Below, piece by piece: positions 4,424-41,135 of a DNA stretch of 57,114 bases. Each line of letters opens with the position of its first letter. Position 1 is the first letter of the stretch. The notes beneath the pieces are model-generated. The model was given only the letters and a program-made list of their open reading frames with translations. It had not been told where the DNA came from and did not search any database. The position numbers and the translations under genes are program-made. The DNA comes from Prorocentrum cordatum (Eukaryota): NCBI GenBank assembly GCA_963575745.1, contig CAUYUJ010000046.1:62001-119114 (forward strand). Direction: 5' to 3'.

Positions 4424-5414
4424 CGATGATGATGATGATGACGATGATGATGATGCTGATGGTGTCCCGATGATGAGGATGATGATGATGATCATGATGA
4501 TTATGTTGATGATCATGATGATGACGATGATGGTGTCCCGATGATGATGAGTATGATGATGTTGTTGATGATGCTGATTATGATTGTGTCCCGATGATGA
4601 TGATGTTGATGATGATGAGGTTGATGATGATTATGGCGTCCCGATGATGACGATTATTCTGATGGTGATGATGATGTTGATGATGATGGCGTCCCGATGG
4701 TGATGATGATGATGATGGTGTTGATGCTGATGTTGGTAATGATGATAATGGTGCCCCGATGATGACGATGGTGATGCTGATGATGATGTTGATGATGCTG
4801 ATGCTGATGATGTCGATGATGAGGATGAGATGATGATGATGGGGTCCGGATGATGATGATGATAACGATGGTGATCAGGATGGTGTCCCGATGATGATGC
4901 TGCTGCTGATGATGATGATGACGATGACTGTGCCCCGATGCTGCTGATGATGATGTTGATGATGATGATTGTGATGATGGTGCTGATGATGATGACGATG
5001 GTGGTGTCCCGATGATGTTGATGCCCGTGATGATGACGATGTTGGTGTTGATGATGAGGACGGTGTCCCGATTATGATGATGTTGGTGATGATGATGTTG
5101 ATGATGATGTTGTTGTTGATGATGATGATGACGTTGATTGTGAGAGCGGTTGTGATATCGATAGTGAGATCGATAGTGAGACCGAATGTGATATCGATAG
5201 TGAGATCGATTGTGAGATCGTTTGTGAGATCGATAGTCAGATCAATTGTGAGATATACCGAGTGAGATCGATTGTGAGAACGATCGAAGGAGATCGATCG
5301 AGCGAGACCGATACTGAGATCGATAGTGAGATCGATAGTGAGACCGATCGAGTGAGACGTTGATTCCTCCCCCCCGAACCTTCTTATCTCCCGAAGGGTG
5401 GTCGTATAGGTATA
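3856..5414 (+). repeat. ~1.55-kb composite dispersed repeat, copy A (unique head + GTCCC repeats + (GAT)n + GTGAGATCGATA repeats + terminal hairpin)
   Basis: Its reverse complement is present at 13537-15045 with the same module order and highly similar unique ends (e.g. ccgggaaatcgatttcggtttcgtgttcgtgcgtgcc; cccgaagggtggtcgtataggtata). Confidence 0.85.
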
Positions 5415-9536: not shown

Positions 9537-12500
9537 ATGGGCCCCAAGCGGGCAGCATGCTTTACGTGCTCTGTCTGCGAGGCCGACCTGCTGCGCGACT
9601 CGTTCACACCTACCCAGCTACACAAAGCCACGAAGACTTGCAAATAATGTGCCACACGGGCATCTTTCACGTGCTCGGCGTGCACGCCCGACCTTCCGCG
9701 CGACTCTTTCACACCCACTCAGCTGCACAAAGCCACAACGATTTGCAAAGCATGCGCCGCCCTCCAAAACAGACCTGCGGTGGCCCTGCCCTGCACTCGC
9801 TGTCGCGAGGAGCTCTCCCCCGAGGACTTCGCAGTTCAACGCCGACACAGAACCGAGAGAATTTGCTTCATTTTGTGTCCGTGCTCGATGCGGAGGAACA
9901 TTGCCGCTGGGCGATTTTGCTCCCAGATGGCACGCCCGCAACCAGAAGATATGCCGACGCTGCTGTCCACTAGGACGCCCGGAGGACGCCTTTTCCCGAA
10001 TCGATTTGGGTGCCATGACGCACACATGCACCCATTGCTCTGCAAAGCTGTTCCACTGCGAAGGCGATGGTTTCTGCTGCGGCGCTGGGAAGCATTACGT
10101 GGACTTCACAAAGTACCACAAGCCCCCTGCAGGCGCTGTCATGAAAACGTTCGGCACTACGTGGCTGTGCAAGGACGAACAGGGACGCCCAATACACGAC
10201 GCCATTTCCAATGCACCTCGATTGACGGGATTCTCAGCCATCAGCAGGCGCTGCAATAGTCTGTTCTCTTTCGCCGTGCACGAGATTCAAAGCACTACTT
10301 CAGAACGGGAGATGCGATTCAATAGCGAGCTGCGGCCTTCCAATATCCGAATCCCTGGCACGATGTACCGGCGGACTTGGAGCTGCGCTGACACGACGCC
10401 TCTACGCTACATTGTCGTCGACCCTCGGGGGCGCGTCACGAACGCCACTGCGCACAATGTGGACCTAAAGTTGCTTCGGCGACTGGAGACACTTATCCTT
10501 CCGCACAATGGCTATGCGAAAGAGCTTCGACGCCTGTCGGCCCCGTCAGTACGCGGCGCCGCCGTGGCGGTCGAGCTCCAGTGGGGCGAGGGCATCAACG
10601 AGCTCGCTGCGATTGCCCATGAAACACCCCGCGTGGACGCGTCGCCCTGGTCTGTCGTATTCCGAAGGAACTCGTGTCCCACGCCGCAATGCCTGAACCC
10701 GCTGAGCGCGCTCTACGAGCCCTTGAGTTACCCGCTCTGGTTTCCCCGCGGCGGCCGCGGATGGAGCGCCGACATGCTCGCGAACGCGGGGCAGCGCCTC
10801 ACGCAGATGTGGTGGCACCGTTAACACCTGCTACGAAGCCCACGCATGAATTTATGTGGGCGGCTCTTGAACGAGTGGCTCGTGGACATGCAATGCAGGA
10901 TGGAGGATGAGAGGCTCGGACTTCTTCGCAGAGCACAGGCTCGACGAACTTCCAAAAGAGAAGACATGTGCGAGGCCCTCGCCAATGACGCGCCCGTCCC
11001 TGGCACGAGTGCATATTTGTCTTCGAGCGTGCTCGGCCCCCCCCGCCACCCACGCAAGCTCCGAATGGACTCCCTGGAGCTTGCTCGGCGAAAAGGCCCG
11101 CCAACCTTCTTCAGCACGTTGACGTGCAACCCATACTGGCCCGAGATCACTGCCGCTCTGCATCCGGGCCAGGCAGCAGCAGACCGCCCAGACATCGTGG
11201 TCCGCGTATTCCGCGCTCGATTGGAGAAGGCGATGGCGCACCTCAAGCGTGAGTTCTGTGGAGACCGCAGGTACGTCATCAGGGTTATTGAATATCAGCG
11301 CAGAGGGCTGCCCCGTGCTCACATTGCCATAGCCCTGACGACGCCACCAACTGCGCCCGAAAGCCGTAGGCACCTTCGTCCCATGCGAACTTCCACCAGA
11401 CGGTCCTGTCCGCGCACTCGTCCTTCAACACATGATGCACTCGTGCAGCCATTCGTGCCACCCCGACGACCCATCTCAGGAGTGCATCACAGGGTGCCCG
11501 TGGCCTTTCCAGGGTATCCACATCACCGCCGCAGACATTGCGGCGGTGACTGCCCCAATTGCGCGTCTGGGACCCCATCTTACGGAAAACGATCTGCGTG
11601 CTGCAACCGGCTGATCGTGGAATACAACCCCACCATCCTCCTGCTGTGGGACGGACACGCCAATGTCAAATTCGCAGGGTCCGTCAACCTGTTCCAATAC
11701 CTTTACAAATCCCTGTTCAAAGGACCAGACCTTGTCAAGTACGAGCTCCAGGAGGACACTGGCAACAAAGACGAGATTAAAGAATGGCAGCGTGGCCGTT
11801 ATCTTTGCGCCACGGAATGCGCGTGGCGCATGTTTGGCTACACTACGTATGAACGCATCCCTCATGTGGTTTGTCTACGAGTACATTGCGAAGACGAAGA
11901 TTGGATCACCTATGCCGCCGGACAAGAAGAGGACGCCGTACAATCGTCTATTTCGTTTTTTTCAACGCTACTTCCACCGGCCCAAGTTCGAGCCGTACCT
12001 CTCCACGAAGTACTACGAATATTTCGAGCGCTTCATGGTGGCCAAATCTTGCCCGCAAGCCTTGCAGCACCACTTTCCCGACCTCTTTCCACGGGCTGCG
12101 GCGCCTTCGGCGACCCCCCCGCCGGGCGGGGCCCTGGCGCCCGTGCTCGACGCTGCCCCTCCAGGCCGGACCCACTTCGTCTACGAGAAGCAACGGGGCG
12201 AACATCCTATATGCAGGCTCGAAATGAAGTGCCCCAAACAGAGAGAGGTGTTCTACCTCAGACACATACTGTTGAACTGCCCAAAACCAAGCTTCGCCGA
12301 CTGCAAAACCCACGCCGGCCGGAGGTACCCTACTTATGAGCAAGCCCTTGTGGCGACCGGGTGTTTTGCGACAGCTGACGAACCCGCGCTGGTGCTCCAG
12401 GAGTTAGTCGAGCTTCGATACACTGCCGCTCAACTACGGTTCGCCTTCGTCGCGTTGCTCGAGCAGGACGCGTGCGCCGTGACGCTGTGCAACAAGTTCG

Positions 12501-13380
12501 AGAAGCATCTCCTCGATGACTTCCGCGATCGCGGGCTCACTCTAGATTCTGCCCGCACAGCTGCATGCGACGCTTTGCGCCTCTCGTGCCAGTCCATTGG
12601 CAAATCGTTCACGCTGGAAGAAGACAAACCTGCACGGTCTCAACCATCCCCAGCATCAGACACCTCTGCGGCGCCATTTCCCCCGCAAGAAGCGCAATCC
12701 CGCGCGAAGACCATCTACAAGACCCTTGCAAAGGATCCGAGTCAGACCGACGCCGTCAGAGCGATAATCGCGTCCATCCGCGCCGGGGCCGAGAAGTATT
12801 ATTTCGTCCACGGCCCCGCTGGCAGAAGCAAACCCACCGTCGCCAGTTACATCACTTACGCTGCTTTGGGGAGTGGACAGCGGGTCGTCAACATGGCCAC
12901 GACAAGAGTCGCGGCCCTGCAATTGCCCTTCGGCGCCACGGCGCACTCTGTCTGCAAGATTCCGGTGTCTGACGAGGACGTCCTCACTTGCTCTCTGCCG
13001 ATGAGCTCCCAAGGTGCCCGTACCCTCGCCGCGGCGTCTGTGCTCCAATGGGATGAGTGGCCAAATTCTAAACGACCTGCGTGGGAGAGCGTCCTCAAAC
13101 TATTGGACCATATTCAACAGCACCACACTACCATCTGGAAGAACAAGGCTTTCGTCTGCTATGGGGATTTCCGCCAGATTCCTCCTGTGGTGAAAGGAGG
13201 CACGCGGGACTCTATCGTCAACGACAGTGTTCGGAAATCTGCTACATGGGAGCTTTTCACTATTTACGCTTTGCAGGTGAACCACCGACAACACCGCGAC
13301 GTCGACTACGCTACCTGGGTTGCAAGCGTCGGCGACGGCACAGCCCCGTCGACACATCATCTCTCCGATGAGCCTGGGCG
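9537..13380 (+). pseudogene. Helitron Rep/helicase, inactivated and C-terminally truncated
   Basis: Start gccATGG at 9537 (MGPKR...). In-frame stops at 9645 and 10822; frameshifts near ~9870, ~11370, ~11550 and ~11960. HUH reads RAH, YxxxY reads YLYKS and Walker A is degenerate. The helicase breaks off after ...VGDGTAPSTHHLSDEPG and joins the non-coding 3' end. Confidence 0.88.
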
Positions 13381-13506
13381 CTACGGCGCACTCGCCTCGC
13401 CTCGCCTCCGCTCGCACATTTCCCACACACACACATCGCGCCCAGAAACATCGTAGGTGCAAGGATCAATATTCGAAGGCGAAGCGCAGCGAGCCTTAAC
13501 ATCTTG
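9537..13506 (+). mobile_element. Decayed Helitron (RepHel pseudogene plus 3' terminus)
   Basis: Helitron Zn motif CTHCSAKLFHCEGDGFCC; YEPLSYPLWFPRGGRGW; GRLLNEWLVDMQCRMEDERL; Rep motifs FFSTLTCN, EYQRRGLPRAH and YLYKSLFKG; Pif1-type helicase GPAGRSKPT, TAHSVCKIP, WDEW and GDFRQIPPVV, QVNHRQ. Ends in a hairpin + CTTG|T at 13503-13506. The 5' terminus was not identified. Confidence 0.93.
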
Positions 13507-13536: not shown

Positions 13537-15045
13537 TATACCTATACGACCACCCTTCGGGTGATAAGGAGGTTCGGGGGGGACGGAAACAACGTCTCAC
13601 CCGATCGGTCCCACTATCGATCTCACTATCGATCTCACTATCGGTCTCGCTCGATCGATCTCACTCGATCGATCTCACAATCGATATCACTCGATCTATT
13701 TCATTCGATCAATCTCACAGTCGATCTGACTACCGATCTCACAATCGATCTCACTATCGATCCCACCATCGATCTCACAATCGATCTCACATTCGGTTTC
13801 ACTACCGATCTCACTACCGACATCACAATCGATCTCACAATCAACGTCATCATCATCATCATCAACATCATCGCCACCAACGCAATCAACATCATCATCA
13901 TCATCGGGACACCATCATCATCGTCGCCTCATCACCATCAGCATCAACATCATCATCACCATCATCATCATCGGGACACCATCATCGTAATTATCAACAT
14001 CACCATCATCACCATCGGGACACCATCATAATCATCATCAGCAGAACACCACCACCATCATCATCTCATCATCATCATCATGAACAACATCAGTAACATC
14101 ATCGTCATCGGGACGCCACCATCCTCATCAGCAACATGATCATCATCAACATCATCATCATCATGGCAGCACCATCATCATCGTTACCAACATCATCACC
14201 ATCATCATCATCCGGACACCATCATCATCATCAACATCAGCATCATCATCAATATCATCATCGGGCCACCATCATCCAAACCATCATCATCACCTCATCA
14301 TCATCCTCATCATCAACATTATCATCGGGGCACCCTCATCGTCATCATCATCATTCTCATCAGCATCATCATCATCGGGACACCAGCATCATCACCATCA
14401 TCATCAGCATCATCATCCATATCATCATCACCATCATCATCATCATCGGGGCACCATCATCACCATCTCACCATCAGATCATCATCAGCATCATCAGGAT
14501 CATCAACATCATCATCATCGGGACACCATCATCACCATCATCAGCCACATCATCATCATCATCATCATCAACATCATCATCGTCATCGGGACACCATCAT
14601 CACCACCATCACCATCATCATCATCATCATCATTATCAACAGCATCGTTAACATCATCATCATCATCAGGACACATCATCATCACCACCATCACCATCAG
14701 CATCATCATCATCATTATCATCATCATCATCATCATCATCAGGACACCGACGGGACATCGGCGGGACACCTGCGGGACACCGCGCGGCACCGGACGCCAG
14801 AAGGGAGTCATTTGGTCCGGCCGCGCCTCAGCCACAGCGGGACACCGGCGGGACACCGCGCGGCACCGGTTGCCGGAAGGGAGTCATTTGGTCCGGCCGC
14901 GCCTCAGCCACAGGAGACTTTCTTCTCGCCCGCCCACGTAGCTTCGCTTCGCCCGCACGCACGGCACGCACGAACACGAAACCGAAATCGATTTCCCGGT
15001 AGGGGGGCTCTCCGTTCCACTTCGATCTCACCCCCATCACCTCCG
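13537..15045 (-). repeat. ~1.5-kb composite dispersed repeat, copy B (inverted relative to 3856-5414)
   Basis: Reverse complement of copy A; has a perfect hairpin caccc-ttc-gggtg at ~13551-13563; flanked by TA-rich DNA. Confidence 0.85.
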
Positions 15046-17685: not shown

Positions 17686-18684
17686 CTCTGCGGGCGGAGG
17701 AGGAGGAGGTTGGAAATCGCTGCTCCCCAATTGTATGAAGGAGGAGGAGGAGGAGGCGGAGGAGGAGGAGGAGGCGGAGGAGGAGGAGGAGGCGGAGGAG
17801 GAGGAGGAGGAGGATGAACAGGAGAGGGAGGCACGCGGCAACAGTGTGACCACGACCATGGCGAGGGAGCGAGGAGGGAGGGGCGGAGGAGGAGATCCAG
17901 GAGGGGAGGACGAGGAGCAGAAAGAGAGGCGCAGGCAAAAGGGGGAGCGAGTCAACACTGTGCCTCCCCCCTTTCCGACCATGCGCCCTCGACGTGGTGC
18001 TCCTTCACCACGACTGGCACCGGGCCCCCCACCCAAGCTCACCACCATGCGGGAAGAGTCCAAGCCCCCGCCCGCCCCCGCACGATCGCTACCGTTAACT
18101 GCCCGGAGGGGGATGGGCGGACCACGACACGCGCCAGAGGATTCACAAAAACGACCTCGTCGCGAACGGACGTAGCCGGGCACCGCGGCACCATTTCCAA
18201 GGTGCTCGGCGGCGCCCGCCCCGGTCCCCGCGCGGACCCCGCCTCCACGGCACATCCTCGAGGGTCACCCCCGGGGGCCCCCCAGACGCAGCAGGGCGCA
18301 TCAGAAGCACCGCTCGGGGGGCGTCGTCGCCGATGGGACCGGAAGCGGAGCGGAGAGATGCTCGTTCTTTTTCTTTCCAGGGCAGTGGTCGTTACCCGGG
18401 AGGGGGGGGGGTCGGAGGGTTCGGGCGGGACAGCAACACTGACAGCGGCCGCGGCGTGCACCCGCCAGGGTGCGTCTGCGCCAGCCACCGCAGATGAGTC
18501 TCCACCCGCTGTTGCGGAACCGCTGGCCCTTGTTGGCGTAGCAGAACTTCCTCCTCCTCCTCCTCCTCATCATCATCATCATCATCCTCTTCCGCCTCCT
18601 CCTCCGCCTCCTCCTCCTCCTCCGCCTCCTCCTCCTCCGCCTCCTCCTCCTCCTCCTCCTCGCTCCTCCTCCTCCTCCTCCTCT

Positions 18685-18887
18685 CGGTAGCAGCACGCGG
18701 GGGCGGCCCTTGCCCTCCCTCCTCCACCAGGGGGCAGCCCTGCGCGGCGGCGCCAGGGCACTGCAGGAGAAGCAAGCAGTTGGGGCGCCCCCGGCGTAGG
18801 GTCTGAAGCACTGGAAGCTGGCCGCCGACTGGCGGCATCGCTTGACTCTCAGGGGAGCCTTGCATCTGGAGCCAAAATGGCTACGGA
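18685..18887 (-). mobile_element. Short SL-headed element sharing the 5' leader of the LINE at 32740-40524
   Basis: Begins with the SL, followed by atgcaaggctcccctgagagtcaagcgatgccgccagtcggcggc (~35/46 identical to the LINE leader). Bounded by CCT/GGA microsatellites; 3' boundary approximate. Confidence 0.65.
18866..18887 (-). other. Dinoflagellate spliced-leader (DinoSL) relic
   Basis: Minus strand TCCGTAGCCATTTTGGCTCCAG, 21/22 match to DCCGTAGCCATTTTGGCTCAAG; followed by AT, not the GT of an SL-RNA intron. Confidence 0.92.
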
Positions 18888-19134
18888 GGAGGAGGAGGAG
18901 CGAGGAGGAGGAGGAGGAGGAGGAGGAGGAGGAGGAGGAGGAGACGGAGCGAGGAGGAGCGAGGAGGAGCGAGGAGGGAGGAGGAGACGGTGGAGGAGGA
19001 GGAGGAGGAGGAGGAGGAAGAGGAGGAAGAGGAGGAGGAAGAGGAGGAGCGGCGAAAAACCGCAGGGCCCGCCTCTCCCCGGGGGCCCGCTGCCTCACTA
19101 GGGGAACGAAACATGGCAGAAACACGAGAACTCG

Positions 19135-19262
19135 GAGGTCCGAACGGATTTCTCGGATCCGCGCTGGACCCCCCCTCCCTGGCGCGCGGAGCGCGCCATG
19201 GGGCGCTGGAGGCGCCGCCACGGGGGGCCCAGCGCCGATCCGAGCAATCCGCGCGGACCTCC
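19135..19262. mobile_element. Foldback/MITE-like repeat family (GGAGGTCCGCGCGGAT...TCGGCGCTGG arms)
   Basis: Imperfect inverted arms here; related arms at ~51010-51040, ~53634-53670 and ~54410-54655. Confidence 0.55.
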
Positions 19263-20762: not shown

Positions 20763-20819
20763 CTGCCGGGTACCCTCGTGTCCCCTCCTCCCCCATCCTT
20801 GTCCTTCTCCTGTCTCGAC

Positions 20820-20890
20820 TACTACTACTACCCCTACTACTACTACTACTACTACTACTACTGACTACTACTACTACTACTACTACACTA

Positions 20891-20930
<40 letters not shown>

Positions 20931-21019
20931 GTATTACTACTCCTACTGATCCTACTAATGCTACTACGGCTACTACGACGACTACTACTACTACGCTGCT
21001 ACTACTACTACTAATGCTA

Positions 21020-21100
<81 letters not shown>

Positions 21101-21143
21101 ACTACTACTAACTACTAACTACTAACTACTAACTACTAACTAC
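20820..21143. repeat. (TAC)n microsatellite
   Basis: Directly visible; runs into the assembly gap. Confidence 0.95.
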
Positions 21144-21243
21144 NNNNNNNNNNNNNNNNNNNNNNNNNNNNNNNNNNNNNNNNNNNNNNNNNNNNNNNNN
21201 NNNNNNNNNNNNNNNNNNNNNNNNNNNNNNNNNNNNNNNNNNN
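21144..21243. other. Assembly gap (100 N)
   Basis: Run of 100 n. Confidence 1.
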
Positions 21244-22118: not shown

Positions 22119-22142
22119 TGTGTATATATATATATATATATA

Positions 22143-22995
22143 AGAAGCCCCCTGGAATTCCTAGGCATCCCTAGGAATCCCTAGGACCCCCTAGGATTCC
22201 AAAGGACTCCCTAGGACTCCCTAGGAGCAATATTCCCTAGGACTCCATAGGATTCCCTAGGACTTCCTAGGACTCCCCGGGAATCCCTAGGAATATCTAC
22301 GACTCCCTAGGAATCCTTTTTTTAAAATGCCATACGAATCTCTAGGAATCCCTAGGAATCCCTAGGAGCCCGTACATTCCTTAGGAATCCGTAGGAATCC
22401 GTAGGAACCCCCAGGAACCTCTTTGAATAAGATGCCATAGGAATCCGCAGGAATCCCTAGGACTCCCTAGGAATCCCTAGGACTTCGTAGAAACCCTTAG
22501 GAAAACCGTGGGAACCCATGAAAATAAGATTCCTTAGGAATCACTAGGGTCCCCTAGGAAACCCTAGGACTCCCTAGGAATCCTTAGGAATCTCTAGGAA
22601 CCCGTAGGAATTTTACGGAATCCCTAAGAATACAATTCCCGAAGAATTTATAGGGGTCCATAGGAATCTCTAGAATCTCCAGGAATTCTCAGAAGTACTT
22701 AGGAATCCCTCGGGCCCCCTAGGAACCCTTAGGAATCCCTAAGAGTAAGATCCCCTGGGGATCCCTAGGAGTCCCTAGGAATACCTAAGAATCCATAGGA
22801 ATCCATAGGAACCCCTGGGAATTCCTAGGGGCCCTTAGGACTCCCCGAGGGTAAGATTGCATACGAATCCTAGGAAGCCATAGGAACCCACAGGAATCCA
22901 TCGGAATCCATAGGAACCAGTCGGAACCCTGAGGATGACTAGGAATCCCTCTGAACCCATAGGAACCCTTAGGATTATTAGGAACTGAAGGAACC
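22143..22995. repeat. Degenerate ~10-bp satellite (CCTAGGAATC)n
   Basis: Dozens of ctaggaatcc/ctaggactcc units; the same motif fills 25070-25180. Confidence 0.9.
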
Positions 22996-25825: not shown

Positions 25826-26123
25826 TCCTCGGCGTAACGGCTTCGCCACCCAGCTATGGAGGATGAGGTAGTGCTCACAACTTGCCACGGATGAGGAGGA
25901 GCCGCTCCTCGGCGCAACGGCTTCGCCACCAAGCTATGGAGGATGAGGTAGTGCCCGCAACTTGCCACGGATGAGGAGGAGCCGCTCCTCGGCGTAACGG
26001 CTTCGCCACCCAGCTATGGAGGATGAGGTAGTGCTCGCAACTTGCCACGGATGAGGAGGAGCCGCTCCTCGGCGCAACGGCTTCGCCACTCAGCTATGGA
26101 GAATGAGGTAGTGCTCGCAACTT
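25826..26123. repeat. 80-bp tandem repeat, ~3.7 near-identical copies
   Basis: ggcg(t/c)aacggcttcgccac starts at 25831, 25911, 25991 and 26071. Confidence 0.92.
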
Positions 26124-26256
26124 CATCACATCAATCACCCATCATCATCAACCAACATCATCATCAACCAGCATCAGCATCAACCATCATCAACCATCAT
26201 CACATCACCATGACACAACATCGGCACAACCAGGGGTCTGTTGTGGACTCCGCTCG

Positions 26257-28530
<2,274 letters not shown>

Positions 28531-28959
28531 TACTAGGGCTGCTACGTGCTTGTTCCCGTAATCTTCTCTTCTCCCACCCCCCTCCCTCCTCTGTAATCTT
28601 ACCCTCCGCCGTCCTGCCCGTTGTTCCCTTCGTCCTTCTACCCCTCCGCCCCTCAACCTCCGCATCCACCATTATCGTTTCTCTCTCCTTTCCAATTTCG
28701 CCTCCCTCCCTCTTCCTTCCTCCGTGTTCCTCCTACCTCTCCCGTATCCTCCTCCTGAACCCCCCGCGACCTCCTCATCCTTCTTACCATCCTCCTCAGC
28801 ATTATCCTGTTCATCACCGCGTGTGGAAGAACAAAGGGTCCACCAGCACTACCATCACCATGCCCATGACGAATACTTGATATACTATCCCTCCCTCCCC
28901 GCCGCCCCTCCTCCTTCCTCGTAATCCTTGCTCTCCTTCTCCTCCTCCGCCGACCACCA

Positions 28960-29875
<916 letters not shown>

Positions 29876-32580: not shown

Positions 32581-32782
32581 CTCGCGAGGGGAAGACGGGA
32601 GTGGGGGAGCCCAGCGTGGGGCAGGGAGAGGAGGAAAAGGAGGAAAAAGAGAAAGGAATCGGAGGAAAAGGAGGCGTAGGAGGAGAAAGAGGAGGAGGAG
32701 GAGGAGGAGGAGGAGGAGGAGGAGGAGGAGGAGGAGGAGCCCACGCCTCAAGGAGGGATCCCCGTCCAGCCACATCGCTGCA

Positions 32783-34276
32783 TTACGCAGCACGGGGCAC
32801 GTCGCCCGCGGCCCACGCGGGGCCATTCCTCATATCCTCCTCCGCAGAGACGATCTGGTTGTTGAAGTCGTCGATGTGAAAGCTAGCGTCAATGAGATCC
32901 GAGCCAGCGACGGCACCGCCGCCATGAAGGCGCGGCCCCTCGACAGGAACGGGGCCATCAGGAAGAAGGGCACCGACTTCACTCACGGAGGGAGCTACTC
33001 CAGCGCCTGCATTAACCATAGCGGAAATCTCCGCATGTCGAACTTATGGGTCATCTTGATGATCATGAGATACAGCAGATGCGAAAGCCTCCGGCTGGGC
33101 CGTCGCGAAGACGTTGTCCTCCTCTCCTTCCACTTCCAAGAAAAGCGCCAAGATGTCCTCCGCGACCTCCATAGCCGCCTCTGTGCCATCGTCTGCCGAT
33201 GATGCAGCCGCCGAAGACACGATGGTGGCAGCGGCCTCAACATCGAGAAGACCGTCATCGCCATGAACTGCACGTCCTGTGACTTGGACATCTGCTTCGC
33301 CAACACCACCAGGTAGTTCGTGTCCAGGATGTGGTTCTTCGTGTAGCTGGGCCGATCCCGTCGGTATGTATGGCAAGGGCCCCCGAGCACGATTGGTGAA
33401 TATGTTGACGCGCGGGCGGGTGGCGTTCGCAACATGTGTCCCCACCTGAGAAAGATGAGCAGGGTTCGTCCCAGTTGGGTTGCGACCCTCGCAGTCCGAT
33501 CCCGTCATCTCGTGACCATGACCACGGCCTTCATCACCTTCCAGCACACTTCCAGGGTTCTGGAGCATCCAGGTAACAAGGCTCCGCTGCTCGTCCGAGA
33601 GGTCGAAGATCTCGTTCAGGTAGAGCAACGCTAGCGCCAGCTGACGGTCTGCGAGCGGATCTGTAGCTTCCGCACCAGACCGAGCAACGTGCAATGCATC
33701 ACGCACCGCAGCACTCCAATGCTGAAGACCCACCAGGGTATCTGCGGTTGCTGTGGCGGAACCAACCCCAGTAGCAGGTGCCAGTGCCCCCGACGCGAGA
33801 GCACCCGAATCACGGCCTGTCAACGTTCGATCCGCAAGTCTGTGCGCCGCCGCCGACTCGAAGATGCTGACATCGGAGCAGCTGGATGAAGTTGTCTCAT
33901 GGTGACCAGCACTGGGGAGCGGAGCAACGGGTGGCACCCAGGAAGAGGAAGCAGATGGGTCTGACGCCCCACTTGTATTCGCCCTCGAGCGTCTCTCGGC
34001 AGCCAGTACTTGAGCTTCGTGCATCTCGTCTGTCAATGTCAATCCAAAAAGACGAGCATCTTCATCAGCCGTCATCGCGGTGTCGTGCTGGGGGTAGCCA
34101 ACGGTGTCGACACTGCGATTGTCCTCATCGGGCAGGTACGGGTCATCACTGATGTCACAGTCACCCTCGACATGCGCAAGGTGCGGCAAGAGGTACGAAG
34201 GCGGGTTGAGCGACAACGGCGGCCCAGATGGAAAGACGTGGCGCAAACGAAGGAGGTCAGCCCTTTTCCGCATCAC
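32783..34276 (-). pseudogene. LINE 3' ORF / ORF2 extension (~500 aa, acidic, unknown function)
   Basis: ORFs 33044-34276 and 32783-33019 are in the same frame, separated by a single TAA at 33044-33046. Overlaps the end of ORF2 by ~20 nt (likely a frameshift). Confidence 0.55.
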
Positions 34277-37200
34277 TCATACGCGACATGTCAGCAGCAC
34301 AGTCCCTTTGCCGAAGATGCGCAAGGGCACGTTGTCGTAAGGTGCGTACGCGCCAATAGTCATTGACGGGCCACGGTTGACTAAGATGAAGGCAGGCCTG
34401 TTCCCTGGGGATAGCCGACGAGTGCAATCCACTCATGCAGAGCTCGATCGCCAGATACCATCGCTCCGGCGCGCATGTCGCTGCGTCCCCAGCACCACGC
34501 GATGGAGAGCTGAACAGAGACCGAAAGTCATTATAGCGTAATACATCTGCAACGTAAGGTACGCACCACTCCATCCATTGCTGGAAATCAGATCCAGAGA
34601 AAGACACATATAGCGAGGGCACCCATTGCTCTGACCAGCGCGAAAAAGCATCCAGCAGCATCAGTCGCCTCCGATGTCCTTGATCGCCTTGCTCCCCCAG
34701 AGGAACATGCCGCGGCTGCGGGTCCTGAGCAAACAGCGAGTCCTGCACGTGGTGGTCACCATAGAGCGGTGGGAGCCACGAAGCAATCAAGCGTGGAGAG
34801 CTGAGCGTCACCGATTCCACAGCCGCTGTTTCTGCCGATCCAGGGTGCACAGCAAAGTAATCCTGATGACGAGGCCAGCCACGTACGTGCATGCGTTCGT
34901 CCGCACATTGTCTCAATGCAAACAGCCGCGATGCATCTGCCCCGCCCCATGTAGACGCTAGGTGATGGGGGAGTCGAGCCCTCCCCAATGCCGAGCTGTG
35001 CCACGCGGCATGACACATGCTGGAGCCAAGAGTGCGTCTTTCCAGCAACGTCCCCACCGGGGTAGCAAACAACCCACAGAAGGCCCAGTATTGAAACACG
35101 CGACTGATAAACTCTGTGCCCCAGTTCATCCAGTCGTCGAAATCGCTGCTGGCGCTGGGCTCCAAGAAGAGTGAGGGAACCCAGTTCCGCGCCCAAGACT
35201 CCAGCAGCACTGCGAAGCGTGCCAACCTCCGAAGCATGATGGGGCCAGCCCCAGCTGGCGGTATGGCAGCGAACCTGGCCTCGCAAATGGAATCCGGAAA
35301 ATGTACGCGACGCGGAAGAGTGTCGTGTAGGAAGCGGCGTCCGATTGGCAACATACCGAGAAGATCATCCCACCATTCATGCACGACCGATGGTGATTCG
35401 AGCATACAGACAGGCAGAGGGTCAGGTGGTACAGGAGGGCGGCGCGCGACCCTGACCCGCCCTGCCGCAGGCGAGGCAAGCGCGCGGGTCCGCACCGCGC
35501 CTCTCCATGTTGTGAGCAACTGATCAGGATGCACACGGTAGAGGTGCCGAAGGTTATGATAAGCAGTAGTAGCCAGATGCGTGTTCATCAGGTCCTCATC
35601 GTAGCAACCGCGAAGACCCCATCGATCAAGAACGTGTGCAGGCAAGTATCGCCGGCCTCCCGATTTGACCATTGCAAGACCCCATGCCAGCCCACGACAT
35701 TCCCAGTAGTGTCCCATATCGTCACGCTCGCCAAAACACCCGAACAGGCACGGTTTGACCCCATCTGCAGACGTAATGCGAGACGAGGTTAACCAACCGC
35801 CACAAATCGCACGGATGATGCTGGTGGCCCAAGCGACTGGGTATGTCGTCAACTTCTTGCGAAGGGTTTCCCAATCCAGGGCTTGAATCTCGCTGCCGAG
35901 CCGCGGGAACCATTTAGTCCATCGCTTGATAAAGGTGGTGGCCAAGGGTGCTGTGCATGAGGACTGCAAGGGGAGGTGTGCACTAATGTACTCAGCTGTA
36001 AAGACCCGATACGCAATCCGCTGAAGATGCTTTTTGACTGAGCTATCGTTCGCCAAGGCGAGACGAGCAGCCGCAGCACCTGTTGATGCCGAGAACTTGC
36101 AGGCTCTCTCCAGAAACTCGGCGAAGGACAGTAATTGCCAAAAGGAGGGCGAGAGACCACCACACAGATCTGCCACGACGCGCTCATTGATCCACCTCGA
36201 TGAGGCTCTTTTCAAGAGGGCTAGATACGTAGCATGTTCAGGGTGTGTGACAATCCCAGACCGAATCAGCGCAGACTTCGCTGACATGGGCAGACTGCGG
36301 AGACGTGGTCCTCCCCGAGCTCCGGGCGCCACCAGGGAACCTCATCAGCTTCACGAGCACATGGATGTCCTGACTCTTCAACATCCTGGGGGGCGGCAGG
36401 AATTGTGCCACAGAACCCACGATTGGCAGGCATCTCGTCGTGTAGTTGATGCCATTCAGGCTTGCTGGGGCCGCAGAGGCGGCAAGGGAGCTGACACGGG
36501 CGCGGTATTTATCCCGTGGCGCCGACCATGATTGAAGGAGCGTAGCCGCTGGACCCATCCACATCCCCAAATTCAGGAGAGTAGCCTCGACTTTGAAGGA
36601 AGACCAGTGCGCCAGCTGATGGCGCAGGAAGTCGCGCACACAATGCCGCAGCTCGGAAGAGAATGTGCCAGCCAGTGGAACGATCACGCACGTGGCGGGC
36701 TTGAGCTTTAGGCTGGCCAGCTTGGCTGCCACCGCCATCGCACGCGATAAGAACTTCAGATCGATCATCTCAAACAGTACTCCCCCGATATCATCAGCAC
36801 AAGCCCGAAAGACACCGCGCTGGCGGAGTTCGATCCCCTGCCAGATGTCCTCCAAGATCGGAGAGGTAGCTGCCGCGAACAAGCTCCCAGCTAATGCACA
36901 GCCTTGAATGATCCCACACCAGATGCGGAAGAGAACCTTAGTGACCCCTGAAGCCCTGCCCAAAGCAGTGACAACCGCATGGAGAGAGCGCATCGCCTGT
37001 AATTGAGCTGACGGCAGGTGAAGGTGCTCAAGAAGGATGAAAAGGTAATTCTGGCTGAGGCTGGGAAACGCTTGTCCAAAGTCGAGAGCGACTAGCAGCG
37101 GCATCCGTTCCAGCGGGTTGGGCATCATCGACGCGGCTCTGGCAGCCACGTCGAGCTCCAGAATGTTTGAGGTAAATTGGCGGCCCGAGATAAAGCCTCG

Positions 37201-39090
37201 CTGTGCTGACGATGTGGAGTTCTTCACGATCGGGGAAAAGGCGGCGTTGAAGGTGGCCGAGATAATCTTCATGTCCGTGTTGCGCAGCCCGAGCGTGCGC
37301 ACCGAGTCAGGGGATCTGTTGACCCCTCTGCTGTCATCATCACCAGCTTGACATCCTTCAGGGAGGACTGCTTGAAGAGTGTCGCCGCACTGAGCGAATA
37401 ACCGTTGCCCATCCATCCTCCATACACAGGATTGCCAGAGGACCTTCGCGCCCGTCTCATGTGCTGCCCAGGCGGCGCATGGCAGCCCATCAACGCCAGG
37501 GGAGGAGCGCGACGGCGCAAGCTTGACAAGCACTCGCTGTAGCATCTCAAGAGACGGTGGGGAAAGCCCATCGAACGAGCAAGGTTGCACGAACCGTTCA
37601 GCATAGCGTCTAGTATGGGCAGGATAATCATGGGGAGCAGCAGAAACTGGTGCCAAATATCGCGTGAGTGCGTCCAGCTTCTCGAATGGGTCGGCATAGG
37701 CGGCGCCGTCGGCCTCGATGGAGCGCAATGCTAGCTTTTTTCGAGAAAGGAACCCAGAGCCGGGCCTTCCGCTGCACCGCAGCGATCATACCAGCCGAGG
37801 GGCGTCGTCGACCTTCCCCGTGTACTGCATCATGTTGTAATCGCTCGAACTCGAGCTCTGCAGCACGACGTTGAGTGGCGTCCACCCACGCCTGAAAGGT
37901 AGGGTAGTCCGCAATGATGACCTGGGTATTCTGTACCTGCAGACACGCCCGAGCAATTTCAGAAGCATGGCATAACTTCTGCGCAAGCGAAGTGTTTTGC
38001 CGCCAGACGCATCGAGCAGCTTGTCGAACATATATCAACTGGGCTTCAAGGGAGTCGCTCTCGTTGACCAAGATATTCTGCATTGTATCGAAAGCTGCAG
38101 CTTGAAGCAAGTCTTTATACCTCAGTAATTGCCACGGTGGGGACATGCCCAAGGAGAACTGTCCATCATTATCGAGAAGCACGCCTAGTCGCCGCCGAAA
38201 CTCTGGCCGTTTGTAGATATGAGCAGGGACTGGTTTGCGATAGCAACCATCAAGATCACGATGTCGAATGTGCACCCAAATAGCCACGTGATCCGATAGC
38301 TCTTTGTCGTGCATCTCTTCGGGCGTGGATACTACCGACACGGAGTGCTGGAGTTGGCATGACATCCAATTAGGTTCGGATAGCCAGAGCCAGTCGATCT
38401 GTGACACAGCCTTCGTGTCATGGCAGTAGTGTGTCGGGTCCTCCGACGCTATCTCCAACATCTGATCAAAAACCGAAGACCAAAGTCTCACATGCGAGCG
38501 AGCGTCATTCGTGACTTTGCGCAACTTTGCTGCTGTCGGTTGCGCCAAGTGGAGCGCGTCGCGCGCTGCTAAGTTGAGGTCGCCACATGCAACAACTAGC
38601 CTTGAGCTGCGATCGAGAGATGCCCAGTGCATGTCCGCCTTAATAGCTCTAATCACCTTCTGCGCGTCAACCACCGAGAGACCATGATTGTGAATATTGG
38701 ACGAATCTCTGCGCGCCCACCCACCAAACTAAATCGCATAACTCTGCCTCTGACGAATGGAGTAGACGATGAAGCCCACGATGACGTCTTCGAGAGTGGC
38801 ACAATCGTAGCAACTCCGCCACGACCACGGCCAGAAACATCATCCCCATCTTTGGCATATTCGAAGGAGCCAAAGACTGTAGCATCGGGCGCGATTCTGC
38901 GCATGTAGAGTTCCAGCCCCCCCCCCCCCCCCCCCCCCTCCCCCCCCCCGGGTCTGGTGAGCCTCTTGTATGGCAACGATGGAGGAGGAGATGCCAATCA
39001 GGTCCAGGTAGGAGGCCTTACTCATCGCTCTAGCACCACGGAACTGCAGCACCGCCCGAGCGTTCCACGACACAAACGTACGCTCCTGAC
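34257..39090 (-). pseudogene. LINE ORF2: AP endonuclease + reverse transcriptase + CCHC finger + duplicated C-terminal domain (frameshifted)
   Basis: APE motifs SWNARA, IQEAH, GRGGVA, CGDLN, PTHY...SQIDW, LSDH. RT motifs SPGVDG, QRGFISGR, ALDFGQAFPSL, GIIQGCALAG, ACADDIG. Zn motif CLFGC...HYWEC. Split over several frames; poly-C run at 38917-38948. Confidence 0.93.
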
Positions 39091-39169
39091 AGCGCGGCGC
39101 CAGGCCGCCCCGCACCTTGTGATAGAAGATGTCGTCGCACTTGCTAAAGAGACCACTCTGGCTCCGCGT

Positions 39170-40326
39170 TGGGCTTGAGGATGTGACCAATCGAGTTGTT
39201 GATACTAGCACGCGTCCACCCCCGTGAGGTGAGCGCGGCATCATGAAAGTAGCAGAGCGTGGGATCGCGGCCAGGCTGAGGTTCAAGTCGCAGCACGGGG
39301 TTACAGTTCTCAGATAGCCATCCATTCTGTCGATCAAAAAAAGAATTTGCACTGCGGGTGCATCCCCCGAAGCACGCTCGTAACCTTCTTGCCAGCAATT
39401 TCAAGCTTGATCTGGTACGGCGACTTATCAGGCCCAATGTGTAGTTGCGTTGAGCCACCTGAGGCAGCTGGCACAGGGAATCGCACCCATTGGCCCTTGC
39501 CGAGGCGGAGCGCAGCCAAGGCCTGTGAGACGCGCTTGCAGGCGAGGCCGACGGCACCTGTGAACTGAATGACAAAAACTCGGTCCTGTTCATCACCTTC
39601 AATATTAAAGCCTTCGGTCTTCGCGTCTTGGAGCCATGTCTCCACTGAGGATACCACATCCTTCTTACATACCAACGTGGGCGCAACGACCTTGAGGATA
39701 GTGCCGTCAACGTTGCGCTGGAAGCCAATGCTGGCGGGCTTGGGGGGCTGCGGTACTTTGTTGGCCATGACGAGCTCCTTACGCATTTCCTCCAGCGAGC
39801 ACTGCATGTCGGCAAACTGCCTGGCGAGGGTCTCGGTGCGGGCGTCCACATCGGCGATCTTGGAGGCCACGGTGTCCAGTTGACGCTGGATGCGCTGCTC
39901 GAGATCATTGAGTTCCGAACGCAGTTAAGTCTCCATCTCGTTCTTGCAATTCCCAGGAACAGCCTTGATCGCATTCTCGAGTTTGTGGACGGCAGCCATA
40001 ACTGGGTCCACAGCCTTGCCTGCAGCGTCGGCCGCTGAGGCGGCCGCAATAGATGCCAGGTCATCCTTGAAGGACTTGAACTCCTGCGGGAGGCGCTTGC
40101 CGAGCTGCTCAGCGATGAGACAGTTGATATGGGCGCTCCAGTCATCGTCGGCCATGTCGTATGCATCATCTTTGGCGTCGGAGACATGACGGCTCGACCT
40201 CGAACGATCATCATCAGCCCGACTACCAGCAGGGACAGAATCATCAGCAGCACCCCGCACAGCTGCGGGACGCCCCGCTGCAAGTGCCTTCTTCTTGCGC
40301 TTGGGAGCCGCACCATTCGGGGGCAT
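39170..40326 (-). pseudogene. LINE ORF1 (basic N-terminus + coiled coil + globular domain), disrupted
   Basis: MPPNGAAPKRKKK start; helical segments (VHKLENAIK, IADVDARTETLARQFADMQCSLEEMRKEL); position upstream of APE; stop at 39925 and frameshift near 39340. Confidence 0.75.
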
Positions 40327-40502
40327 GCGCGGGCCGTACGCGCCGAAACTTGACGCGATCTGGCCGACAGGAACGGGAAAAGCCTCCGTTTACCCGCCGA
40401 CCCAAGCGCAGGGACGGTGGACAGGAGAAGATGCCAAACCTCAAGAGGTCTTGCCAGCCGCGGACTAGCGGTATCCGCTTGGTTTCCAGGGGAAACCTGC
40501 AT

Positions 40503-40524
40503 CTTAAGCCAAAATGGCTACGGA
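40503..40524 (-). other. Dinoflagellate spliced-leader (DinoSL) relic at the LINE 5' end
   Basis: Minus strand TCCGTAGCCATTTTGGCTTAAG, 21/22 match; followed by ATGCAGG. Confidence 0.93.
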
Positions 40525-41135
40525 AGGAGGAGGAGGAGGAGGAGGAGGAGGAGGACAGGGGGACGAGGAGGAAGAAGAGGAGGACAGGGGGACGAGGAGG
40601 AGGAGGAGGAGGAGGAGGAGGAGGATACGGACGACGGGGACAAAGGAAGAGGAAAGTGCAGGTTTCTTCCTCCTCCTCCTCATCCTTCTCCTTTTTCTCC
40701 TCCTCCTCCTTTTCCTGTTCCTGTTCCTCCTCCTCCTCCTCGTCCTCATCATCCTCCTCCTCGTCTCCTCCTCCGTCTCCTCCTCCTCCTCCTCGTCCTC
40801 CTCCTCCTCCTCCTCCTCCTCCTCCTCTCCTCTTCCTCCTTCTCCTCCTCCTCCTCCTCCCTCCATCCTCCTCCTCCTTTTCCTCCCTCTCCTCCCCCTC
40901 ATCCTCCTCCTCCTCCTCCTTCTCCTCCTGCTCCCCCTCCTCCTCCTCCTCCTCCTCCTCCTCCTCCTTGCCCTCCTTCTCCTCCTCCCCCTCCCCGCCG
41001 TCCTCCTCCTCCTCCTCCTCCTCCTCCTCCTCCTCCTCCTCCTCCTCCTCTTCGAGGGTCCCCTCTCTTCCCCCTCCCCCGTTCCCTACCCTCCTGTGCA
41101 CCTCCCTCAGAGGGACCTTCCCAGGAGGCGGGTTC

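Follow-up and report, generated by a model that had tools for sequence, protein, structure and literature searches.

How did a complete dinoflagellate spliced leader (DinoSL) come to head a ~200-bp sequence in the genome of Prorocentrum cordatum, and is that sequence a mobile element in its own right or a piece of something larger? Retrocopies tagged with DinoSL abound in dinoflagellate genomes, yet little has been described of the elements that produce them. In the available text of the literature searched, gene retroposition and retrotransposons are handled as separate matters (PMC7245778; PMC12014239; 10.1101/783902), and one of these sources, a preprint, regards the two processes as independent of each other and states that genes with DinoSL relicts and RT genes have no functional overlap (10.1101/783902).

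The window, that is, the whole 57-kb stretch of DNA that was analyzed, is GC-rich and packed with trinucleotide microsatellites. A search allowing three mismatches found just two DinoSL copies in it (none in 100 shuffles), both on the minus strand and both with 21 of 22 nt identical to the consensus, which is that quoted in the available text of PMC7245778. One heads a short piece, as the first-pass annotation had recognized, and the other a 7.8-kb LINE some 22 kb away. The reading favored here, with a probability of about 0.5, is that an SL-trans-spliced LINE, from the lineage to which the longer element belongs, left the short piece as a dead and solitary remnant of its 5' end.

The short SL-headed piece

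The short piece lies on the minus strand from 18887 to 18684, a 204-bp unit. Its DinoSL relic (18866–18887) differs from the consensus by one A-to-C change near the 3' end, with the terminal AG kept. It is followed by a 46-nt leader beginning ATGCA (18820–18865, minus strand) and a GC-rich tail of ~136 nt (18684–18819, minus strand). Unlike an SL RNA gene, the sequence goes from the SL exon straight into ATGCA, with no GT donor or intron; on this ground, and because the window as a whole has no Rfam match at gathering score, identity as an SL RNA gene was rejected.

Both ends of the unit are bounded by microsatellites. Directly upstream of the SL, where the first-pass annotation had correctly placed a (TCC)n run, is an imperfect (TCC)n tract (18888–19050, minus strand) that keeps phase with the first TCC of the SL itself. 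The tail is followed directly by an imperfect (GAG/GGA)n plus (GAT)6 tract (18545–18683, minus strand), whose polarity is opposite to that of the upstream tract and of the 3' flank of the LINE. These flanks of opposite polarity carry no recognizable target-site duplication, deletion scar or pre-insertion allele, and the 3' end of the short piece has no poly(A). The size of ~200 bp is set solely by the microsatellites and not by homology, so that of the ~200-bp element proposed earlier, the SL plus a 46-nt 5' signature stands, and the extent does not.

No second copy of the short piece was detected within the 57-kb window by sequence comparison or blastn. As RNA, the whole 204-nt unit is not unusually structured (z = -0.30; 73 of 200 shuffles equally stable), and its candidacy as a structured RNA was rejected on that basis.

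The piece had also been placed in sense orientation within a host intron. For a search for host exons, 347 stop-to-stop ORFs of at least 90 aa were collected, 139 of which pass a complexity filter; with 21 overlapping ORFs inside the LINE left out, 118 were compared to Pfam. Only Helitron and LINE RT domains were found among these, and no host exon was detected within several kb of the short piece.

The SL-headed LINE

The LINE occupies 32739–40524 on the minus strand. Its N-terminal part is coiled-coil and ORF1-like and can be aligned with LINE proteins of dinoflagellates; the element also has a weak match to AP endonuclease (E = 0.011, below the Pfam cut-off) and an RVT_1 domain (E = 8e-10). 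Several frameshifts interrupt it, and to judge from its sequence the copy is old and inactive. Among named proteins, those most closely related to it are from P. cordatum, at ~42% identity; outside the region alignable to these there are ~2.5 kb of additional open frames. Its DinoSL relic, the second in the window, is at 40503–40524 (minus strand), followed by a 47-nt leader (40456–40502, minus strand) homologous to that of the short piece. The 5' UTR after the SL extends for 176 nt, up to the likely ORF1 ATG at 40326.

Here too the flanks are microsatellites: (TCC)n adjoins the SL directly upstream (40526–40625, minus strand) and (TCC)16 adjoins the 3' end directly downstream (32691–32738, minus strand), both in sense with the element. 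In tblastn searches with five dinoflagellate LINE proteins, matches in the window were confined to 35493–40107, with no LINE body near 18.7 kb. The LINE RT protein has no match in viral contigs. A long hairpin just upstream of the element, at 40555–40700, is made up of (GGA)n and (TCC)n blocks that stand in inverted order around a ~45-nt spacer; dozens of sub-threshold matches to microRNA models there, far below gathering scores, reflect only this inverted repeat.

A leader in common

The first-pass annotation had reported ~35 of 46 positions identical between the two post-SL leaders, and this is amply confirmed. The alignment of 46 to 47 nt has 35 identities, 11 substitutions and one 1-nt gap (12 differences in 47 columns). 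Its anchored global score is 21.5, a value reached by none of 5000 shuffles (mean -6.8, sd 3.3, maximum 7.5). When the LINE was compared to the rest of the window by blastn, the short piece was the single match (67 nt, 80.6%, E = 7.7e-10); tblastx found nothing.

Some 70 nt from the 5' end, the homology breaks off abruptly. An additional motif in common, cttctcctg, had been proposed further downstream, but nt 68–203 of the short piece resemble the LINE 5' region at chance level only: 299, 241 and 336 of 500 shuffles reached the observed score. The tail compared to the whole LINE does not rise above shuffles in sense (14/200) or antisense (32/200) orientation, and 87 of 200 shuffles score as well against the last 400 nt of the LINE, so it has no 3' end in common with it; the possibility that the tail is the LINE 3' end or another part of the LINE was rejected on these figures. 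Against the rest of the window, the tail has no match longer than 13-nt words. It could be either flanking DNA or an unrelated RNA-derived sequence.

As an outside control, the 46-mers downstream of 140 DinoSL sites from public contigs (121 loci) were scored against both leaders. None carries the leader, and the best anchored score against either version is 3.5. With the leader absent from all of these 140 sites, it is not a general post-SL feature but one specific to the two elements described here. The control set included 119 IMG/VR stretches (L006–L124, mostly GVMAG bins) that carry a full DinoSL. Upstream of the DinoSL, the sequence is very AT-rich in most of these and (TCC)n in none; they look like giant-virus contigs with host-leader cassettes.

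Pattern searches were made in collections that hold little dinoflagellate DNA. Among viral contigs, the SL tail plus ATGCA gave three matches, all in phage tRNA regions, and among metagenome contigs SL plus ATGCA gave two SL sites, both unrelated; in the genome-contig collection this pattern had no match. A leader-only pattern had no match in the genome-contig collection or in the viral contigs.

The leader is not coding: the two copies differ by a 1-nt indel and their changes have no codon periodicity.

Possible structure and function of the leader

Each leader alone is predicted to form two hairpins, at corresponding places in the two copies (z = -2.1 to -2.7; 4 to 7 of 200 shuffles equally stable). 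The arms of the first hairpin hold seven of the 11 substitutions, whereas its loop and the flanking ATGCA and CAAGCG are unchanged. When the LINE leader was given the same number of random changes, 31 of 5000 simulated copies were as stable, by minimum free energy, as the real short leader, and with random mutation at the same positions 71 of 5000 were.

The first-pass annotation had suggested that the ~46-nt block is a conserved cis signal, and that consensus folding could reveal this. RNAalifold on the two leaders gives a mixed answer: in an alignment of two sequences only, 12 consensus pairs are predicted, with three compensatory and none broken, and at least three compensatory pairs were seen in 65 of 3000 two-sequence simulations, but the consensus energy is unremarkable, being reached in 550 of 3000. 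The element-specific character of the block and its weakly kept hairpins would fit a cis signal; the test on consensus energy was negative. Since there are just two sequences, retention of the predicted two-hairpin fold between the copies is a hint rather than a demonstration.

The leader does not resemble known structured RNAs. A cmscan of 18400–19200 at E ≤ 10 returned five weak, unrelated matches, all far below gathering score, and the HDV-like ribozyme, tRNA, 7SL and 5S models matched neither leader at E ≤ 10; a classical SINE head derived from tRNA, 7SL or 5S RNA was accordingly rejected, as was a known ribozyme.

The two copies point to a conserved 5' module, a candidate trans-splicing or translation signal, which may be functional in this LINE lineage. 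It could provide a structured start to the 5' UTR, beside an AG able to accept a fresh SL; the upstream (TCC)n might act as the polypyrimidine tract for such an SL acceptor.

Microsatellite flanks and SL-like octamers

Both SLs directly adjoin imperfect (TCC)n, in sense and on the 5' side. The association is not due to chance, because ends of runs of at least four TCC units are few (84 in the window's 114,228 strand positions), and only three of the 84 are followed within 3 nt by a sequence that agrees with the SL start at 7 or more of 8 positions. The presence of (TCC)n on both flanks of the LINE would fit integration of the element into (TCC)n; alternatively, a read-through RNA ending in (UCC)n might have annealed to a nicked (GGA)n strand, a mechanism proposed by analogy with LINEs that target microsatellites. 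The same repeat is found on both sides of one full LINE copy, and at the short piece (TCC)n is on the 5' side only, so that a target preference for (TCC)n would be drawn from two junctions in one window. Had a ~200-nt RNA simply been inserted into a single (TCC)n tract by target priming, the short piece would not have a 3' flank of opposite polarity. Switches of (GGA)n/(TCC)n polarity are, however, common across the window.

Two further sequences resemble the SL start, each matching 7 of its first 8 nt. One, the third of the three matches next to (TCC)n run ends, is at the far end of the short piece (18684–18691, plus strand), directly after the (TCC)n arm, so that the 204-bp unit has 8-nt inverted termini and ends in the reverse complement of the SL start followed by (GGA)n. 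The other, in direct orientation, is where the (TCC)n tract upstream of the LINE's SL begins (40631–40624, minus strand). Both were noticed post hoc, against a background of 37 matches of at least 7/8 in 114,228 positions, or ~0.002 per named 7-position slot. They could mark a rearranged 5' junction, or reverse-transcriptase stuttering on the 5' UCC of the SL.

Origin of the short piece

Complete DinoSL copies in genomic DNA have been read as the product of reverse transcription of mature, trans-spliced RNA (PMC7245778; PMC12014239; available text). The complete SL at the DNA level thus points to an SL-capped RNA with the leader of this LINE lineage as the source of the short piece. The short piece and the LINE are homologous and have the same type of 5' junction; their homology ends abruptly, and at the short piece there is no LINE body and no 3' end in common with the LINE.

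In the reading favored here, a LINE RNA would have received the 22-nt DinoSL by trans-splicing, and would then have been reverse-transcribed to its very 5' end and integrated beside a (TCC)n tract, like the long copy. The first ~70 nt (the SL plus ~46–50 nt of leader) would survive; the loss of the LINE body would most likely be due to a deletion or rearrangement at a later time, in a (TCC)n/(GGA)n region that is unstable. We infer both the order of these events and the cause of the loss. This reading is favored because the window's only two SLs both lead into the same leader, because the 5' junction is of the same type as in the full-length copy, because the homology ends abruptly at about nt 70 before a tail without a match, and because there is no LINE body near 18.7 kb. 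The 3' side also looks rearranged, with microsatellite polarity opposite and an inverted SL-start octamer, and no feature needed for mobility is present. The 12 differences between the leaders could be ordinary decay of two old copies, given one change in 22 nt in each SL and a frameshifted LINE.

Some observations fit a remnant less well. In a single copy, a deletion looks the same as a chimeric cDNA or a genuine short family, and the microsatellite flanks show no deletion scar, target-site duplication or pre-insertion allele. After its SL the piece has 182 nt, not far from the 176 nt of the LINE 5' UTR, a closeness that random deletion does not predict. The weak signs of a kept RNA structure fit a distinct, selected source better than plain decay, and the inverted octamer is a post hoc 7/8 match.

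Several of these points would be expected if the short piece belonged to a family of short non-autonomous retroposons of NARTc/RIME type, keeping only the LINE 5' signature and copied in trans by the LINE enzymes. The short piece has a 5' signature in common with the LINE, similar in size to the 77 nt of the trypanosomatid pairs; it has the same (TCC)n 5' junction; and it is small, with a post-SL length near that of the LINE 5' UTR. The hints that the leader fold has been kept through 11 substitutions (31/5000 for stability, 65/3000 for the three compensatory pairs) also count in its favor. The first-pass annotation had gone as far as an SL-SINE/LINE pair, but the locus does not support this: there is one copy in 57 kb, with a tail unrelated to the LINE (87 of 200 shuffles match its 3' end as well), a 3' flank of (GGA)n where the LINE has (TCC)n, no poly(A) or recognizable target duplication, and no tRNA, 7SL, 5S or ribozyme signature. 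Its absence from the collections searched weighs little, since they hold little or no dinoflagellate DNA. Overall, a family of this kind seems unlikely. In its fullest form, the SL plus the ~46-nt two-hairpin leader would be a portable 5' cassette of a (TCC)n-seeking LINE lineage, with the 204-bp unit in a NARTc-like family, a proposal that we likewise regard as doubtful. If it were true, a sense copy in a transcribed region would bring its own AG acceptor, with (TCC)n as polypyrimidine tract, and its 5' end would be rebuilt by trans-splicing in every cycle; among dinoflagellates the pair would be the first of an SL-headed, LINE/SINE-like kind, and candidate machinery for their massive gene retroposition.

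The place where the homology breaks off could instead be a junction made at the RNA or cDNA level, with the SL and leader acting as a 5' mini-exon or template-switch acceptor, joined to an unrelated RNA and then inserted. The donor-like hexamer GGCAAG (G|GCAAG) starts at nt 70 of the LINE element, exactly at the end of the homology, and is the only occurrence of any of four donor-like hexamers in its first 400 nt; the combined frequency of the four in the window is 0.00105 per strand position, so that one within 2 nt on either side would be found by chance ~0.5% of the time, a figure calculated post hoc. About 95 nt further along the LINE UTR is a pyrimidine-rich stretch followed by CAG. GC donors occur in dinoflagellates, and spliced or chimeric L1 retrocopies in mammals. 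However, the short piece after the junction is unlike the LINE sequence after the putative acceptor, its tail has no known parent and ends in neither poly(A) nor (TCC)n, and the motif is a single, post hoc case. A chimera of this sort is somewhat more doubtful still. Least likely among the readings considered, and improbable in itself, is a host origin, in which an ordinary retrogene tagged with DinoSL would begin with the short piece, and the leader would come from the 5' UTR of a host gene family and have been acquired by the LINE as well. In both copies an ATG stands directly 3' of the SL, and that of the short piece opens a 157-codon frame running into an acidic, E/D-rich stretch, but this frame is low-complexity microsatellite, and the indel and aperiodic changes between the leaders speak against coding. 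Residues 1–60 of the frame have no match in a set of 5.8 billion protein sequences, the leader-frame ORF of the LINE has none in the protein database, and no Pfam domain was found.

Comparison with known systems

The short piece belongs in kind to the DinoSL-tagged retrocopies, a well-described class. Such retrocopies likewise have a near-complete 22-nt DinoSL in genomic DNA, heading sequence that is not an SL RNA gene (PMC7245778; PMC12014239; 10.1101/783902; available text). The parent is unusual: here it is a LINE-type leader instead of a host gene, with only ~50 nt of parent sequence after the SL and no poly(A). Neither an SL-headed LINE nor an SL-headed short partner was found described for dinoflagellates in the available text of the literature searched.

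The trypanosomatid pairs L1Tc/NARTc and ingi/RIME also consist of a short element and an autonomous LINE with their first few tens of nt in common, in organisms that, like dinoflagellates, trans-splice their mRNAs. The NARTc and RIME families have many copies, and have a 3' end and poly(A) in common with the LINE as well; here there is one copy in the window and no common 3' end. According to the available text of the sources, the 77 nt in common (Pr77) contain an internal promoter and an HDV-like ribozyme (PMC3383444, PMC1874656, PMC4035085), and Pr77 transcripts are unspliced (PMC1874656), whereas here the 5' end is the spliced leader itself and no HDV-like ribozyme model matches. Even so, the analogy makes an apt working model.

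Some LINEs target microsatellites: Tx1-clade elements are found in (TC)n or (TTC)n, and Dong in (TAA)n. The long LINE resembles them in having the same (TCC)n on both sides in sense, and both SL junctions adjoin (TCC)n; the preference here is drawn from two junctions in one window, and the short piece has (TCC)n at its 5' end only. A different relationship to spliced leaders is known from SLACS, CZAR and CRE in trypanosomatids and NeSL-1 in nematodes, which insert inside SL RNA genes and split the SL exon. In these, too, LINE sequence adjoins spliced-leader sequence, but here the element comes after an entire SL, which has (TCC)n and not an SL gene upstream of it, and neither an SL intron nor a remainder follows. 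SpIREs and U6/L1 chimeras of mammals are 5'-only, spliced or chimeric L1 retrocopies, in which the extreme 5' end of a LINE RNA is likewise joined to other sequence. At the short piece, the sole sign of splicing or template switching is the donor-like hexamer at the breakpoint.

Together, an SL-bearing LINE and a second SL-headed piece with its leader indicate that RNAs of LINEs in this genome undergo trans-splicing and full-length copying. Of the two, the long element, headed by an SL and flanked by (TCC)n, is of greater note, and the short piece is a second, independent witness of its leader. As a single fragment, ordinary in kind, the short piece has its value as a search key (SL plus leader) for the genome.

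Other features of the window

A 100-N assembly gap lies at 21144–21243, between the two SL-headed sequences. There are (TAC)n/(CAT)n arrays with strong GC skew at 20800–21110 and 26100–29000, and at 25850–26110 (minus strand) ~3.5 copies of an 80-bp tandem repeat lie beside long (TAC)n/(CAT)n arrays. A tandem array at 22139–22600 (plus strand) has a 10-bp period and ~65 units of a partly palindromic, CCCTAGGA-like sequence. On the other side of the short piece, at 10825–13453 (plus strand), is a Helitron-type gene, with a Helitron_like_N domain (E = 4e-32) followed by a PIF1-like helicase (E = 8e-35); inverted (CAT)n-type microsatellite blocks at ~4490–5265 and 13697–14292 bracket it at a distance.
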